A stretch of DNA of 64,000 nt from an uncultured Candidatus Saccharibacteria bacterium (GCA_964652345.1 CAZZBO010000001.1:3892-67891); one strand, 5' to 3'; positions 5,095 to 8,479 are shown, counted from the stretch's first letter. Made by a program: numbers and translations. Notes: generated by a model from the sequence alone, not told the origin.

Positions 5095-5300
5095 CCTGCG
5101 AATGGGTTGGGTGGGGCAAGGGCAACATCAACTCTGGTGGCGTATTTTGCTTTGCAAAATACGCACTCCAAATCCGCCGAAAAAAGAGCCGTTGGAAACG
5201 AGGGCGAGGCGGAAGGGGGGTGTGGGGGGAATTCCGCCTCGCCCGAGCCGAAGCGAAGCTCCGCCACCGAATTTCGTGCCAGTTGAAAACTGGCGTGCCA
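5095..5300. repeat. GC-rich structured repeat element, copy A (58-nt module plus long hairpin)
   Basis: 58-nt module at 5105-5163 is near-identical to 8420-8479 and includes a perfect 10-bp hairpin CGTATTTTGC-TTT-GCAAAATACG. A 13-bp GC stem GGGCGAGGCGGAA(5202-5214)/TTCCGCCTCGCCC(5232-5244) has a 17-nt G-rich loop. Additional hairpin GCCAGTT-GAAA-AACTGGC lies at about 5277-5294. Confidence 0.55.
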
Positions 5301-5343
5301 CCAAAAATATTTGAACAAATCTAATTATAATACATCTAATAAT

Positions 5344-7016
5344 TTATGCCGCTATTTTCATATTTTCTAGCGTATTTCTTATTCGTTCTATTTCAGCATT
5401 ATCTCTTTCTTCCATAACTAGTCTCTCAATGATTCTTATTCTTTCATTAAAAATCTTCAACGCTTGCTCTTTATCTCTTTCTGAAATGAATGAACTCTTA
5501 ATACCATTTTTTGCAACTTCTTTAACATTATTCCAATTCATCAATTCGCTATGTCCGGTTAATAGAAATTGCGCATATTCTTTTGTTATATTTGTGCCAC
5601 AAATCGCATCGTTGTCGGTACAAATTGTTATAGGAATTTCTTGATTAACCAATTCTTGAACTGGATGAATTGCCATACCTTCAGTATTCAAAGGAATTGA
5701 AGAAATGTTACAAACGCCACAGATTTCTACTGTAGCACCACTTTTTTTGAGATGGTCTAATGTTTCCAGATTTGATACCGCTTGAACACCATGTCCTATC
5801 CTGTTAGCTCCCATTTCTAATGCTTCCTCAATAGATTCATTACCACTTTTGCCTTCGTTATAAGTCGGAGTTTCGCCTGCATGTATGGTAACACCAATCA
5901 ATTCACCTTTAATTTCACCCGATTTTATTTTATTATTATATTCTTTAATTAAATCAAACCCTTCTTTGAAATAGACTGGATTGTAGCCAGTGTCCTCTGG
6001 GCCAGCAATATCAAAACTGAATTTTTTGTCTGGATATTTTTGGGCAAATTCTACTGCTAATTTTGCATGCTCGATAACCTCTTCGGGTTTCCAGTCTCTA
6101 CCTCTATATCCAAGAAAGGTGAAGCCAACTTTGGGTGCTTCTTCGCCATATCAGCACGAGATTTTTCCATTGCTTCTAAAATATTTTCTGTAGCGACATG
6201 CGGATCTAAAGTATTTCCCAAAGCATCTCTCTGACCAATAACAGAACAACGGATTTCTGTTGTTAGTTGTCCTGCTCGTGTTGCCTCCTCAATAATGCCT
6301 TTCACTGCGGCTTGATAATCTTCTGGAGTTCGAATAGCACTTCCTATCGTTCCGTAAGCTTTGTTAAAGGCATCTAAATTTTCAAATCCATCCTCACCAT
6401 TGGTGTACGCATTTTTTATAGCCGCAATCTGTTCTTCATTAAACTTGTGAATTCGTGCACGCTCCAATAGAGTTTCCATTGGCACCGAACCCTTTAAGTG
6501 CTGGTGATTATTAGTTTTTGGCAAGAGCCGGGCTAAGACATAAGAAATTTTGATATTTTCTTGTTCTGGTGTGTTTTTAGTATCGGCAATAATCTCTCTC
6601 AAAACAACTCTGGCTTCTTCAGCTCTCGAACCAAAATCCATTGAGTTAATCCGTGTTGATATTTCACGATCTAATTCTTTTACAACTTCAGCGGCATGCT
6701 TAAAATCATCACGCAGAGTTTCTATATCAGTTTCGGCAAAATAGGATTTATAAACTTTGGCTTTCCTTTCAATGCCATTATACTCGGAAACTAATTCATT
6801 AAATAATTCCGCAAGTTCTTCTGGTTTTGCTGTCTTTTTTTGTTCTTCAAACGACCGCAATAATTCAAAAGCTTTTTTCGACGCTGGATTCATTGGATCA
6901 GCGACATATCTTTTAAGTATCTCGCTAATATCACTTGCGAATACAGAATTTTTGTTCTCGTTGATAATTAAAATCTGTCCAGGTCTAACAGTAACATCCC
7001 CTTGCATCCGTTGCAT
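5344..7016 (-). pseudogene. adenosine/AMP deaminase-family (amidohydrolase) gene with ~170-aa N-terminal extension, disrupted by a frameshift and with an IS inserted at its 5' end
   Basis: Motifs HQHLKG (HxH), DIAGPE, TIHAGE (HAGE) and ICTDND (TDDP-like) at canonical spacing. ORFs 6057..7016 and 5344..5901 are in different frames. My translation of the downstream frame is open back to a TGA at 6151-6153, so a -1/+2 frameshift lies within 6058..6150. The annotated ATG (7014-7016) straddles the IS left inverted repeat. Confidence 0.7.
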
Positions 7017-8037
7017 ACATATTGGACTTTTCTAATACATAATCCATTGGTACTTTATCATTAATTCTACTATGTATCCTTTGTGTGTTGTAGAAAAGAA
7101 GATAATCCATTAATAGGTGGTTGAATTGATCTGTATTGGCAAAGAGAGTCTGTTCATGATTGTTAATAAACTCATCTTGAATAGTACGATTGAATCTTTC
7201 AATGAAAGCGTTTTGTTTAGGATTTCTGGGATAAGTAAAGAAGTGTACAATCCCATTCTTAAGCATCTCTTGATCAGCATATTTTAAAAATTCACTACCG
7301 TTATCAGTTTGAATAGCTTTAATCGAAAAAGGAGCAACACTAATTAACTTAGAGATGAAATCAGCAGATGATTTAGAGGAAAGATGTTTGTAAGAGTAAG
7401 CAAAAGAAAATTTAGATTTGGTTTCAATAGCAGTAATAATGTATCTTCTAATACCATTATCAAACTTAACTATGGCGTCTAATTGAACAAGATCTCCTAG
7501 TTCATTAACTTCATAGCCAAAGATTCGTCTCTTAACTTGCCTCTGTCTCTTTTGGGCACGATTTCGATCGTAAAGATAGAAGAACCAATTATTACGTTTG
7601 ATGATCTTACCGATAGTGGAGGCAGAAATACACTCAAGGTCATTCTCTCTACAAAACTCATCTAAAAGAGGTTTTATCTTGTCTTTGGAGAGTCTTGGAT
7701 ATTTTTTTCTTAAATCATGGATAAATTCATAAATTTTAGTTTCAATATACATTCTTCTTACTTCCCTTGGTTTGCGAGAGCCATTAATTAAACTATGTAA
7801 ACTACCTCCTGACTCTCTTAATTTCTTCTTCCACGAATATATCGTAGAACGAGAGACATGAAAAGCATCACGAGTGGGATTAAGTCCATATTTATCAAAG
7901 AAGATAATGATTTTAATCTTATCTTTGATCTCTGGATGATCACGACAAAGTTTAGAATTGGTTATTATTTTCATTAACCTTTTATACCCCACAATGCCCC
8001 TGTATAGAAAGTAGGTATTACGACACAAATAACTCAT
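6985..8037 (-). CDS. IS481-family DDE transposase (HTH plus integrase core domain)
   Basis: rve-core motif IQTDNGSEFLKYADQEMLKNGIVHFFTYPRNPKQNAFIERFNRTIQDEF. N-terminal HTH. The last ~10 codons read through the left inverted repeat into flanking DNA. Confidence 0.85.
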   Translation of the reverse strand: MSYLCRNTYFLYRGIVGYKRLMKIITNSKLCRDHPEIKDKIKIIIFFDKYGLNPTRDAFHVSRSTIYSWKKKLRESGGSLHSLINGSRKPREVRRMYIETKIYEFIHDLRKKYPRLSKDKIKPLLDEFCRENDLECISASTIGKIIKRNNWFFYLYDRNRAQKRQRQVKRRIFGYEVNELGDLVQLDAIVKFDNGIRRYIITAIETKSKFSFAYSYKHLSSKSSADFISKLISVAPFSIKAIQTDNGSEFLKYADQEMLKNGIVHFFTYPRNPKQNAFIERFNRTIQDEFINNHEQTLFANTDQFNHLLMDYLLFYNTQRIHSRINDKVPMDYVLEKSNMYATDARGCYC

Positions 8038-8075
8038 TGGGCTCCTTTCTTATCTTGTAAGAGTCCAATATGTAT
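7015..8075 (-). mobile_element. IS481-family insertion sequence (~1.06 kb)
   Basis: Perfect 14-bp terminal inverted repeats: ATACATATTGGACT at 7015-7028 and AGTCCAATATGTAT at 8062-8075. Single DDE (rve) transposase ORF with HTH. No clear target-site duplication seen. Confidence 0.7.
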
Positions 8076-8095
8076 CGTAACTTGTGCATTATTTT

Positions 8096-8302
8096 TTATT
8101 TCAATAAATCATCAACTCGAACTTCCAATGCTTTAGCGATTTTTTGCAAAGTTCCAATAGTCGGATTAGTAATTCCGCCTGTTTCGAGCTTGATGATTGA
8201 ATTATAAGAAACATCCGCCAGTTTTGAGAGGCGATCTTGAGACAAGCCCTTGGCTTGTCGTAATTTCTTTATATTCTTGCCGATTTTATTCTCTTGTGCC
8301 AT
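8096..8302 (-). CDS. XRE-family (Cro/C1-type) HTH transcriptional regulator, 68 aa
   Basis: KNIKKLRQAKGLSQDRLSKLADVSYNSIIKLETG helix-turn-helix. Stop lies 20 nt from the IS right end, so it was probably immediately upstream of the deaminase gene before the IS inserted. Confidence 0.85.
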   Translation of the reverse strand: MAQENKIGKNIKKLRQAKGLSQDRLSKLADVSYNSIIKLETGGITNPTIGTLQKIAKALEVRVDDLLK

Positions 8303-8419
8303 ACTTGTATTATAATAATGGTATGATACAATAGTATTATGAAAACTTGTATCTCAATCCTACTATTAGAATACATCTTTCCTTTGATTTTTACAAGGGA
8401 GTTTAATGTTGTGTGCGCA

Positions 8420-8479
8420 CGGGTGGGTGGGGCAAGGGCAACATCAACTCTGGTGGCGTATTTTGCTTTGCAAAATACG
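8420..8479. repeat. 58-60-nt repeat module, copy B (near-identical to 5105..5163, direct orientation)
   Basis: GGGTGGGGCAAGGGCAACATCAACTCTGGTGGCGTATTTTGCTTTGCAAAATACG is shared with one mismatch at the 5' edge. Weaker similarity continues ~30 nt to the left (..AACTCCC). Confidence 0.65.

Follow-up and report, generated by a model that had tools for sequence, protein, structure and literature searches.

The 59-nt direct repeat in the 64-kb stretch of Saccharibacteria DNA analysed here (the window) consists of two copies of module R, which is conserved more strongly than any other part of a family of GC-rich, folded boundary elements. Copy A forms the inner terminus of a complete element, E2, and copy B is an internally deleted version of such a head, directly downstream of a tRNA-Ser gene; the repeat is read here as two heads of neighbouring cassettes and not as the scar of one insertion. 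The family, spread across Patescibacteria (CPR), is apparently undescribed. We see roughly even chances that R and the E elements serve as the boundary modules in an array of cassettes anchored at tRNA-Ser, with recombination at the module joints, a mechanism that we infer.

Patescibacteria have tiny genomes, few recognised mobile elements and a defence based largely on restriction-modification (RM), and how they acquire and shuffle RM systems is poorly understood. To our knowledge, they are largely without CRISPR and classical mobile elements. Cassette borders in groups from Saccharibacteria to Parcubacteria and Peregrinibacteria may be marked by a conserved structured element. In that case, the element would be a sequence handle with which MAGs can be searched for accessory cassettes, the repeated assembly breaks at the elements would have an explanation, and the hairpins T1 and T2 would be a concrete substrate for a cassette-moving enzyme, or for an acting regulator or RNA processing.

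The repeat pair

A repeat search of the window placed copy A at 5105–5163 and copy B at 8421–8479, both on the minus strand, with 58/59 matching positions (98% identity over 59 nt). The initial annotation was right that the direct repeats are real; its start for copy B, 8420, was off by one. The copies differ by a single mismatch or, alternatively, by a 1-nt indel at the G-rich edge, and a 50-nt core (5114–5163 = 8430–8479) occurs exactly twice in 64 kb, with 0 occurrences expected from shuffles. On the right, identity stops abruptly at 5163/5164 and 8479/8480. On the left, similarity is lower but ongoing (25/35 over the next 35 nt), in agreement with the decay over some 30 nt described at first; homology does not end there, however, since a weak but significant alignment continues up to the downstream start codons (z 3.4; 1 of 500 shuffles). 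A and B therefore hold equivalent positions, before the ATG of a methyltransferase gene (A) and of an XRE-family gene (B).

Each copy is divided in the same way, for copy A and the E2 body with a consensus fold. In copy A, the T1 hairpin (5141–5163) is followed by CCACCA (5135–5140), the 5′ arm of hairpin T2 (5120–5126) and the T2 loop; the rest of T2 lies below the copy, within 5036–5104 on the minus strand, with the 3′ arm at 5091–5096 and AAGGAACTCCC at 5077–5087. In copy B, T1 reads CGTATTTTGC-AAA-GCAAAATACG (8457–8479, minus strand), followed by CCACCA (8451–8456) and then GAGTTGAT, the T2 5′ arm and C-rich loop. The T2 3′ arm of copy B is degenerate.

Gene content around the repeats

The segment between the copies was originally said to hold a decayed deaminase gene, an IS and an XRE regulator; all three are there, but so is a 140-nt GC-rich structured body (5164–5303) that belongs to E2. 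The adenosine-deaminase pseudogene (5344–7016, minus strand; ORF calls and Pfam) comprises ORFs of 185 and 319 aa, in pieces at 5344–5901 and 6057–7016. In the domain-model search, its deaminase domain hit the CARF-ADA (Cad1-type) defence model, and the split gene had no match to a CARF domain. Between it and the XRE gene, the IS (7003–8088, minus strand; core terminal repeats ATACATATTGGACT at 7015–7028 and 8062–8075), whose rve (DDE) transposase ORF spans 6985–8037 (Pfam), is an independent insertion; two other samples carry the same IS–deaminase junction. The absence of an adjacent integrase, already remarked upon, is borne out: Pfam gives only the rve transposase, XRE and deaminase pieces in the segment.

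The XRE-family HTH gene (68 aa; 8096–8302, minus strand; Pfam and alignment) belongs to the subfamily that lies downstream of module R at six loci of other genomes (L018, L020, L028, L031, L109 and L127), and it matches controller-protein and CapH models. In its leader/promoter region (8303–8420, minus strand), TTGTAT..ATACAA forms an inverted repeat and TATAAT stands immediately ahead of the ATG. Indels aside, this leader/promoter region is homologous to the promoter-proximal region of the methyltransferase gene (5036–5104, minus strand), where a TTGTA-AAA-TACAA palindrome directly precedes the ATG. The latter leads into the RM cassette, all on the minus strand: a type II N4/N6 DNA methyltransferase (531 aa; 3440–5035; Pfam), a TdeIII-family type II restriction endonuclease (260 aa; 2661–3443; Pfam) and, as last gene, a 137-aa ORF of unknown function (1872–2285). 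The methyltransferase gene is 72% nucleotide-identical to the one in the L049 cassette, which is preceded by an XRE gene.

On the other side, spacer x (8480–8551, minus strand) separates copy B from tRNA-Ser(TGA) (8552–8641, minus strand, CCA encoded), whose upstream neighbour is tRNA-Arg(GCG) (8656–8731, minus strand; both by ARAGORN and Rfam). Copy B ends 72 nt from tRNA-Ser (73 nt in the initial annotation). Other CPR genomes have an element after tRNA-Ser whose initial ~55–70 nt (..ATCAC..GAAA..AAGG..GCCCCGCCG..) look like spacer x, by eye and in short BLAST hits. Two blocks of L018, arranged in another order and orientation, match the spacer as well.

Module R in other organisms

Module R is made of T1, a terminal hairpin with CGCCACCA, a motif that resembles a tRNA 3′ end, and of the initial half of another hairpin, T2, whose loop is C-rich. 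Other organisms have the module upstream of XRE genes, at 10 loci or more. In the 52-nt core of R, either window copy is 46–51/52 identical to the other compared loci, so the identity between A and B needs no recent duplication. A 28-mer retrieved R in six JGI contigs, and BLAST retrieved it in L127, L031, L109, L147 and L028; the R pattern had 0 matches in GTDB representative genomes, and at no other locus did two directly oriented R modules appear, which weighs against a function of R as a joint. The tail of copy A agrees with L028 at 34/35 positions and with copy B at only 25/35; as judged from these alignments, the tails of A and B just outside the core are different family alleles, neither derived from the other.

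Both hairpins show paired changes. T1 is a perfect 10-3-10 palindrome, three pairs of its stem have 5–6 double changes, and 11/14 sequences keep, on the gene-sense strand, a U.G pair that the other strand is unable to form. Between family members, T1 stems can be entirely different (pal type versus GCCAG type). The T2 stem is 92.9% paired, and 3/7 pairs are changed on both sides between two alleles, a covariation that amounts to those two alleles and possibly to a single event. T2 always lies ~100–130 nt upstream of an XRE-type regulator gene in the other genomes inspected; at L147, L065, L047 and L100 the element ends at T1, with no XRE gene or T2 beyond. Rfam 15 gave only the tRNAs at threshold in the window, nothing meaningful at E up to 10 in 4900–9200 or at E up to 1 in 1400–2700, and nothing meaningful on the canonical element of L065.

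Paired elements bracket cassettes, mostly RM, across CPR

E2 is a complete, 169-nt GC-rich element. Its body (5164–5303, minus strand; 58% GC versus ~33% in the window) has a minus-strand fold of −85 kcal/mol (z −4.5) and is 88% identical to JGI contigs over 176 nt. Following copy A are a linker with a U-run (5164–5201), hairpin H with loop CCCCCCACACCCCCC (5202–5244) and an outer hairpin with GTGCCACCA (5276–5303), which reads on the plus strand. The termini of E2 are inverted (TGGTGGC...GCCACCA) and have subterminal hairpins, and its GGTGGCGG pairs with CGCCACC of copy A.

At the far end of the RM cassette stands the inverted partner, E1 (~1501–1710, plus strand; hairpin H at 1552–1590), 92–95% identical to elements in many CPR MAGs. 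The RM cassette therefore lies between inverted H hairpins, at 1556–1586 (plus) and 5208–5238 (minus), that are 94% complementary. Contigs of other samples stop inside E1, at 1525–1529 and 1631–1642. The initial annotation would have taken occurrence at many unrelated positions, as of a generic dispersed repeat, to refute its own reading; at family level and across genomes the repeat is of that kind, but within the 64-kb window family members are found only at 1.5–8.5 kb.

The H pattern occurs at no fewer than 119 GTDB loci, nearly all from CPR, and at 4 IMG/VR loci; H was retrieved by exact pattern, and its apparent invariance is partly by construction. The extended stem is 88–95% Watson–Crick and uses GC, CG, AU and UA pairs. 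Among the >120 CPR loci, all two-copy cases (23/23) face inward, 1.4–6.7 kb apart, and sit inside perfect inverted repeats of 67–299 nt. The cargo between paired elements is mostly RM genes plus HTH_3. The flanks of the 23 two-copy loci hold no matching direct repeats, i.e., no target-site duplications. No recombinase is consistently near the elements: a Xer-type gene was found near H only at L026, besides the distant, Xer-like one of the window (54053–55009), its only tyrosine recombinase. Both absences count against recombination at the joints.

The boundary elements, 130–330 nt long and multi-hairpin, have mosaic joints. L028, L147, L050 and L065 have nearly the same body up to the T1 foot or the end of CGCCACC, where they part, L018 combines T2 arms from two alleles, and L117, L049 and L035 keep a frame that is 83–92% identical around unrelated cargo. 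Homologous recombination at homology ends can also yield such joints, without a dedicated site.

The tRNA-Ser border

The 3′ end of tRNA-Ser, CACCGCCA on the minus strand, is TGGCGGTG at 8552–8559 on the plus strand and forms the right border of a variable region. The same TGGCGGTG is the outer end of E1 (1501–1508), which starts with TTGGCGGTG, as at the tRNA-Ser end, followed by a TTCGAA motif like that of a T-arm; the CGCCACCA motif of R is in direct orientation with both the tRNA-Ser and the E1 end. In near-identical strains, contigs stop or diverge at 8549–8553, and in one of them, L003, the sequence switches exactly at the tRNA-Ser 3′ end. The alternative flank of L003 is a conserved tRNA-Ser trailer, which L035, L049 and L117 have beyond their inverted repeats. 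All contigs obtained from exact-protein look-ups were short and broke off at the elements; they include one alternative junction, located at the tRNA end and not at the repeat. More generally, 20/142 H sites lie at most 600 nt from a tRNA 3′ end, tRNA-Ser in 10 of those 20, and 13/14 of the H sites downstream of a tRNA are co-oriented with it.

A proposed cassette array with recombining joints

The ~7 kb from the tRNA-Ser 3′ end (8552) to E1 (1501) may be read as a two-cassette array on the minus strand. Cassette 1 has a truncated head (spacer x and copy B), followed by the XRE gene, the IS insertion and the decayed Cad1-like deaminase gene; cassette 2 has a complete head (E2 body and copy A), followed by the methyltransferase, TdeIII endonuclease and 137-aa genes and the inverted E1. 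The core identity of A and B would mainly reflect family-wide constraint, possibly plus gene conversion, instead of a recent target or att duplication. The modules would be joints where cassettes get added, swapped or lost, much like pdif modules or integron cassettes, presumably in a site-specific manner. The point of recombination would be the T1 foot just after CGCCACC, or the T2 loop, and the agent a recombinase supplied in trans, such as a host Xer-like enzyme, or homologous recombination. The analysis itself shows the anatomy and conservation of the elements, their paired structures and inverted bracketing, the cargo, the linkage to tRNA-Ser and the mosaic joints; site-specificity of recombination at the joints, and its enzyme, are inferred.

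More tentatively, it is possible that the E/R elements, with hairpin H, the tRNA-end-like T1 terminus and the T2 leader, define an undescribed, Patescibacteria-wide system of defence cassettes that are recombinase-less, XRE-bearing, tRNA-Ser-anchored and inward-bracketed, and that are exchanged among lineages by a host enzyme acting on strand-specific folded sites. Such a system would be the functional counterpart in Patescibacteria of integrons and pdif modules.

Comparison with known systems

RM units flanked by long inverted or direct repeats were described by Furuta, Abe and Kobayashi (2010) as 'transposon-like' or long-target-duplication units; the repeats are locus-specific, the transposon-like units have 8-bp target duplications, a trans-acting recombinase or transposase was proposed, and some cases were linked to tRNA genes (PMC2853133). 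The RM cassette of the window has the inverted repeats by which transposon-like units are defined and, as in those units, repeats of tens to hundreds of bp bracket RM genes without a mobility gene. In contrast, the CPR brackets, including those of the window, are one conserved structured family across many lineages, and the cassettes at the 23 two-copy loci are without target duplication. The direct repeat also departs from the long-target-duplication units: it encloses the XRE gene, IS and deaminase gene, and the R and M genes are outside.

Genomic islands at tRNA 3′ ends include an RM-plus-integrase example (PMC2853133). Like these islands, the variable region begins at the tRNA-Ser 3′ end, its far border in E1 repeats the tRNA end, and the family is enriched downstream of tRNA-Ser. 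Unlike them, it has no integrase, the shared tRNA-like stretch is only 8–9 nt plus a degenerate T-arm, and the 59-nt repeat is not the tRNA-derived repeat.

Gene modules of Acinetobacter plasmids are bounded by pdif sites, i.e., inversely oriented 28-bp XerC/XerD sites (11-6-11). The cassettes resemble pdif modules as discrete accessory units without their own recombinase, with inverted boundary sites, arrays and variable cargo in a constant frame, and with a host Xer-type recombinase as the presumed agent (the only tyrosine recombinase gene of the window is Xer-like); they differ in their long multi-hairpin boundaries and in being chromosomal, beside tRNA-Ser, and not plasmid-borne. We recognised no dif-like 11-6-11 core in the elements.

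Integrons have IntI, attI and Pc, and attC sites with R″/L″/L′/R′ boxes (GTTRRRY), and their cassettes are one-oriented and mostly promoterless. The likeness is in the cassette arrays, in boundaries whose structure is conserved more than sequence and in a recombinase outside the cassettes; attC also functions as one folded strand, which recalls the strand-specific U.G of T1. The present cassettes, on the other hand, carry their own regulator and promoter-like sequence, and their elements are inverted, not direct. No IntI, attI or Pc was found near the elements and, by inspection, there are no GTTRRRY boxes or attC-like core, the module ends reading GCGCCRCC. That no dif- or attC-like core was recognised argues against the joint reading.

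REP/REPIN and MITE-type elements are short, GC-rich, palindromic, non-coding elements with many dispersed copies. The E/R family shares with them GC-rich palindromic dispersed elements, inverted termini (E2) and assembly breaks, but it is much larger and more modular, tied to cassette borders and tRNA-Ser, and confined to this island in 64 kb. No RAYT or transposase partner of the E/R elements was identified.

Alternative explanations

The recombining-joint reading has to be weighed first against a cis-regulatory or RNA role of R, as structured leader, insulator, processing signal or XRE operator, which we regard as possible but somewhat doubtful. R would then stand before the XRE gene as well as before the RM operon, placing the two under one regulator, its identity being kept by a shared binding or folding partner. 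The near-constant distance of T2 from XRE genes fits this role, as do the match of XRE to RM controller-protein and CapH models, the perfect T1 palindrome and the TTGTA..TACAA palindrome common to both start codons and promoters. In the L049 cassette, the XRE gene is directly before the homologous methyltransferase gene, so the XRE of the window could be a displaced controller of the RM operon. Elements after tRNA-Ser share its strand and might be transcribed together with it, and elements that face inward at the two ends of a cassette would be well placed to block incoming transcription in an orientation-dependent way. Recombining joints are no better a fit than an RNA or regulatory role, and perhaps a poorer one, for the strand-specific U.G of T1, the fixed T2–XRE distance and the co-orientation with tRNA-Ser. 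However, a controller protein binds a palindromic C-box that overlaps the promoter of its C gene or lies just upstream of it, and the T1 palindrome lies 110–180 nt from the start codons, beyond known controller-protein boxes; the wholly different T1 stems argue against a single sequence-specific operator, and the four elements that end at T1 have neither XRE nor T2 after them. Promoter and terminator scans were at chance level, the hairpins have no U-tract after them, and there is no Rfam match. A regulatory role also leaves the cargo swapping unexplained, and likewise inverted repeats that are 100% identical over as much as 299 nt.

We find it unlikely that the second copy was made by a local rearrangement. 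In its favour, RM genes with direct-repeat flanks of >30 bp are known, through insertion with long target duplication (PMC2853133), and the RM operon of the window is without the XRE gene that its homologue in L049 has. A and B share the GAGTT variant with L127 and L031, where L020, L016, L018 and L028 differ, and the sharp right edge falls where homology ends, as in a conversion tract. Yet the RM genes are outside the repeats and not between them, the core agrees at 51/52 with copies from other organisms and needs no recent event, and neither of the two tails, of A and of B, derives from the other.

Very improbable is the view of the initial annotation, in which an integrative element of 3.3 kb (XRE gene, deaminase gene and IS), with the copies as its attL and attR, entered site-specifically by the tRNAs and can leave as a circle: the repeats do lie at cassette borders in direct orientation, with 59 nt and one sharp edge, the sequence beside tRNA-Ser does differ between strains (L003) and the tRNA-3′-end-like motif is in direct orientation with the tRNA-Ser and E1 ends, but they are not the junction pair of this segment, since it has no integrase and the only enzyme there, a DDE transposase, comes with terminal repeats of its own, the repeat is outside the tRNA, many other genomes, with 10 loci or more, have R in the equivalent relative position, as a junction duplication would not give, and the flanks are family-typical but different alleles whose homology continues to the start codons. 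No excised, empty or circular 3.3-kb form was seen among the short exact-match contigs, which are hardly able to reveal one; this counts against both an att pair and recombining joints. As a substrate for deletion, a role also proposed from the start, the 59-nt direct repeats are valid: recombination between them would lose the 3.3 kb that they enclose.

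The repeated module and the elements that contain it

The initial annotation described a 3.3-kb segment bracketed by att-like direct repeats beside tRNA genes. A repeat search confirms the direct repeat, 59 nt at 5105–5163 (copy A) and 8421–8479 (copy B) with 98% identity, and across the 64 kb of the window its 50-nt core is present at these two sites alone, against no occurrence expected by chance. The copies differ only once, by a mismatch or a 1-nt indel at the G-rich edge. Their identity has a sharp right edge and is weaker leftward (25/35 over the next 35 nt), where the alignment, interrupted by indels, reaches as far as the start codons of the genes downstream (z 3.4). 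The genes between the copies were also listed correctly, namely an adenosine-deaminase gene in two pieces, an IS of the rve type that has terminal repeats of its own, and an XRE gene (8096–8302); what had been overlooked is that copy A forms the edge of a structured patch of 58% GC, against about 33% for the window as a whole.

Small ORFs over the repeat on the G-rich strand (5020–5286 and 8339–8560) were rejected as genes, since by inspection the substitutions among homologues lack synonymous bias and GC-rich sequence is expected to contain open frames. The same (plus) strand reads GGGTTGGGTGGGGCAAGGG at 5105–5123 and 8421–8439, four G-runs fitting a G-quadruplex motif.

Copy A ends a complete element, E2 (5303–5135, minus strand), a closed multi-hairpin fold (z −4.5) of four parts: an outer hairpin with GTGCCACCA (which is read from the plus strand); hairpin H, which is rich in GC and whose loop is CCCCCCACACCCCCC (GGGGGGTGTGGGGGG on the plus strand); a linker between H and the next hairpin, T1; and T1 itself, a perfect palindrome CGTATTTTGC-AAA-GCAAAATACG followed by CCACCA. 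T1 takes up the initial 29 nt of the repeat; what remains belongs to a second hairpin, T2, and consists of its 5′ arm and its C-rich loop. At copy A, GGCAAC completes T2 and AAGGAACTCCC comes next. The second H of the window lies at 1556–1586 on the opposite strand, within the inverted partner of E2, E1 (about 1501–1710). E1 and E2 face each other, with a 137-aa gene, a TdeIII endonuclease and a methyltransferase (3440–5035) between them, and profile searches of the window returned E1, E2 and copy B as the only family members. The GC-rich patch at 5105–5303 was considered as a known RNA and gave no Rfam match at gathering or permissive thresholds. BLAST found no match of E2 to annotated phages or of E1 to plasmids, and a promoter/terminator consensus scan was uninformative, with counts equal to shuffles.

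The spacer between tRNA-Ser (8552–8641, minus strand) and copy B, at 8480–8551, resembles the beginning of the canonical tRNA-proximal element; copy B therefore looks, in its sequence, like a head that lost its middle, H included. The canonical element (5328–5437 of the fetched locus L065, with homologous parts in L113, L125, L080 and L055) carries a long AT-rich hairpin, AAAAAAGTTTTCTTC ... GAAAAGAAAACTTTT, which gives weak false matches to Rfam microRNA precursor models and is missing from the window copies.

A 52-nt core from either window copy matches two other fetched loci (L020 and L016) at 51/52, L127 at 50/52, and L018, L031 and L028 at 46–49/52. Since this core is shared almost unchanged with other loci, the identity of the two copies requires no recent event, and the repeats are a conserved module, not the duplicate of a junction as first proposed. 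Just beyond the core, the tail of copy A is the L028 allele (34/35) and that of copy B a degenerate relative of the L018/L020 allele. In every other inspected locus T2 is followed after about 100–130 nt by an XRE gene, which places copy B in the canonical context; the XREs tied to modules with the palindromic T1 form one subfamily. The context of copy A is canonical save that the XRE ORF is absent, with the methyltransferase ATG in its place.

Conservation of the paired structures

Compensatory changes indicate that the structure of T1, T2 and H is under selection, with H taken by exact pattern and the T2 signal consisting of two alleles. These T2 stem alleles, CTTTTCC/GGAAAAG and GTTGCCC/GGGCAAC, differ at three pairs in which both bases have changed, and pairing holds in 92.9% of cells; L018, combining arms of both alleles, and window copy B, with a degenerate 3′ arm, are the exceptions. 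The T1 stem is either of the palindromic type or of an unrelated GCCAG..CTGGC type, always with GCGCC(A/G)C next, and three of its pairs show 5–6 double changes. Its second-position pair is U.G in 11 of 14 sequences, in strand sense to the downstream gene. The extended stem of H is 88–95% Watson–Crick, using GC, CG, AU and UA. Wobble in H has no strand asymmetry (17 G.T vs 18 A.C over the first six variable pairs), so that H, unlike T1, gives no strand call.

Distribution of the family and its cargo

A 28-mer of the repeat has matches in six JGI contigs, where an element resembling E2 (88% identity over 176 nt) is accompanied by an inverted copy of its H part at a distance of 3.6–6 kb. The H pattern was found at four IMG/VR loci and at least 119 loci in GTDB representative genomes; among the matches listed, nearly all are Patescibacteria, of many classes, with a few MAGs labelled otherwise, and the conservation of H apparent in them is to be read with its retrieval by exact pattern. 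The pattern for the 59-nt module had no match in GTDB representative genomes or IMG/VR, and a looser T1 pattern found nothing in IMG/VR beyond the contig already known.

All 23 loci with two H copies have them facing inward, 1.4–6.7 kb apart, in inverted repeats of 67–299 nt that are often 100% identical. Several whole contigs are one such unit; L027, for example (4386 nt), has 99-nt terminal inverted repeats enclosing an XRE, an endonuclease, a methyltransferase and three more ORFs. No target-site duplications were found around the inverted-repeat cassettes.

The cargo of the two-H units is mostly restriction–modification (RM) components: N4/N6, C5 and N6 methyltransferases, Vsr, and endonucleases of the HaeII, EcoRV, HinP1I, TdeIII, TaqI and CfrBI types. 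HTH_3 regulators are also common, and none of the 25 cargo families listed is a transposase or integrase. The elements are without a linked recombinase: tblastn with a Xer-like protein placed such an enzyme near H in L026 only, and the one in the window (54053–55009) is far away. Three loci (L117, L049 and L035) share a common frame around unrelated cargo, with 88–92% identity over the 5′ element, leader and XRE and 83–92% over the 3′ element. The window methyltransferase is 72% identical in nucleotides to that of L049, which has an XRE gene directly 5′ of it; exact-protein look-ups of the window methyltransferase and XRE gave no match on record. The 68-aa XRE beside copy B matches controller and CapH models.

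A PADLOC CARF-ADA (Cad1-type) model matches the deaminase domain alone of the split gene at 5344–7016 (E 2e-19, C-terminal piece), and the N-terminal part of about 130 aa has no match; the gene may be a decayed defence effector under the control of the adjacent XRE.

Contigs assigned by binning to Anaerolineaceae, Methanomicrobiales, Methanoperedens, Syntrophaceae, Flavobacteriaceae and Bacteroidia carry H as well, and some of them have 59–60% GC. These contigs, which include L053, L081, L089, L124, L139 and L142, could be either mis-binned CPR sequence or true spread beyond CPR. On a 77,054-nt contig labelled 'viral' (IMGVR_UViG_3300032070_000632; L026/L028), the ends overlap by 127 nt, exactly one E2-like element (H and T1), as would be seen either in a circular molecule or in a direct-terminal-repeat artefact of a dispersed element. 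XRE, RadC, methyltransferase, tRNA-Met and peptide deformylase genes lie downstream, and a Xer-like recombinase about 6 kb upstream.

Association with tRNA-Ser and strain variation

Of 142 H sites in the fetched loci, 20 have a tRNA 3′ end no more than 600 nt away, and the tRNA is tRNA-Ser in 10 of these 20. The element is co-oriented with the tRNA in 13 of 14 downstream cases, and the sequences of the tRNA-linked cases have it begin right behind the tRNA. E1 starts with TTGGCGGTG, about 8–9 nt at 1500–1508 that are the same as the tRNA-Ser end, and then a T-arm-like TTCGAA motif; a search for a tRNA-Ser 3′ fragment that would mark an island end gave TTGGCGGTG alone, with no longer fragment.

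Contigs of near-identical strains from other samples end at 1525–1529, 1631–1642, 5224–5228 and 8549–8553, and exact-protein look-ups led to short Logan contigs that break at E1, the E2 hairpin and the tRNA. The tRNA end varies between strains: in L003 a different sequence, GCCAACAAAGACATTTCCCAAC, stands past the tRNA-Ser 3′ end. It also borders the inverted repeats of L035, L049 and L117 on their outer side, beside TGGCGGTG, and the GC-hairpin trailer containing it is taken to be the tRNA-Ser terminator. The L003 strain (Logan SRR30024180) is 99.98% identical right of the tRNAs and has the trailer at 1–22, directly after the tRNA-Ser 3′ end; it may lack or replace the entire 7-kb array.

Mosaic joints and reading of the locus

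Element bodies that are almost identical part ways at fixed points. In L050 this point is the 5′ foot of T1, in L147 and L065 the position directly after GCGCCACC, and the body of L028 runs on into T2. The sequence changes exactly at the T1 foot in window copy B and L018, and the identity of copies A and B ends inside the T2 loop. Since the T2 arms of L018 come from two alleles, the allele switch lies between them, i.e., within the loop. These mosaic breakpoints at the T1 foot, after GCGCCACC and in the T2 loop argue for recombination.

On the minus strand, the locus can be read as tRNA-Arg (8656–8731), tRNA-Ser, two cassettes, E1 and conserved chromosome. The first cassette comprises the spacer with copy B, the XRE gene, the IS insertion and the decayed deaminase; the second, the E2 body with copy A, the methyltransferase, the endonuclease and the 137-aa gene. 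The 3.3-kb unit of the initial annotation thus corresponds to the first cassette plus the body of the following cassette's head.

We propose that the modules would be joints where cassettes get added, swapped or lost, through an enzyme supplied in trans or through homologous recombination, and that the direct orientation of the two repeat copies would make the first cassette deletable. We consider the chances for and against this proposal to be evenly balanced. The main alternative gives the module a role in regulation or as an RNA element, linked to the XRE and to transcription that comes in from the tRNA. Such a role explains the strand-specific U.G in T1, the fixed distance of the module to XRE genes and the TTGTA..TACAA palindrome common to both start codons, but leaves the long perfect inverted repeats and the swapping of cargo unexplained. 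Recombination joints and regulatory elements are not exclusive of each other. A classical att pair is unlikely, since no integrase is encoded between or beside the copies and the module, which lies outside tRNA-Ser, recurs in at least 10 loci of other organisms; a long target duplication is unlikely, since the RM genes are not between the repeats.

The family to which the repeat belongs is more interesting than the att-like repeat as first stated. Integron cassettes and pdif modules are among the closest known systems. The closest descriptions also include RM units with long inverted or direct flanking repeats and RM islands at tRNA genes (PMC2853133). What sets the locus described here apart is one conserved, structured, tRNA-end-like boundary family across CPR, whose elements face inward and have neither integrase nor target duplication. 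We found no description of the elements in the literature on RM mobility, CPR genomic islands and CPR horizontal transfer, which is weak evidence given its limited coverage.

Neighboring features

Within the RM cassette of the window, a second GC-rich non-coding patch (2387–2665, 45–48% GC) lies between the TdeIII endonuclease gene and the 137-aa gene; it has no Rfam match, and its homologues among the fetched loci are in same-strain contigs only. Just past tRNA-Arg, a stretch of about 50% GC (8887–9124) holds a 77-aa ORF (8887–9120) and is followed by a terminator-like hairpin (9133–9166); a small protein or an RNA may be encoded there.

For one population, contigs from different samples (L015 3317–10006 vs L020 1–4224) are distinguished by a tandem duplication inside the RM cassette, which covers about 2.2 kb and has 265 nt of new sequence at its joint. 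The same population carries the region immediately downstream of tRNA-Ser (L020 4081–4608), which opens with a short 3′ fragment of that tRNA, at either side of the cassette, forming a direct repeat of roughly 530 nt. Three to four tandem units with a period of about 84 nt (L020 4264–4548, L015 2691–3059) separate a 21-nt 3′ fragment of tRNA-Ser from the intact gene.
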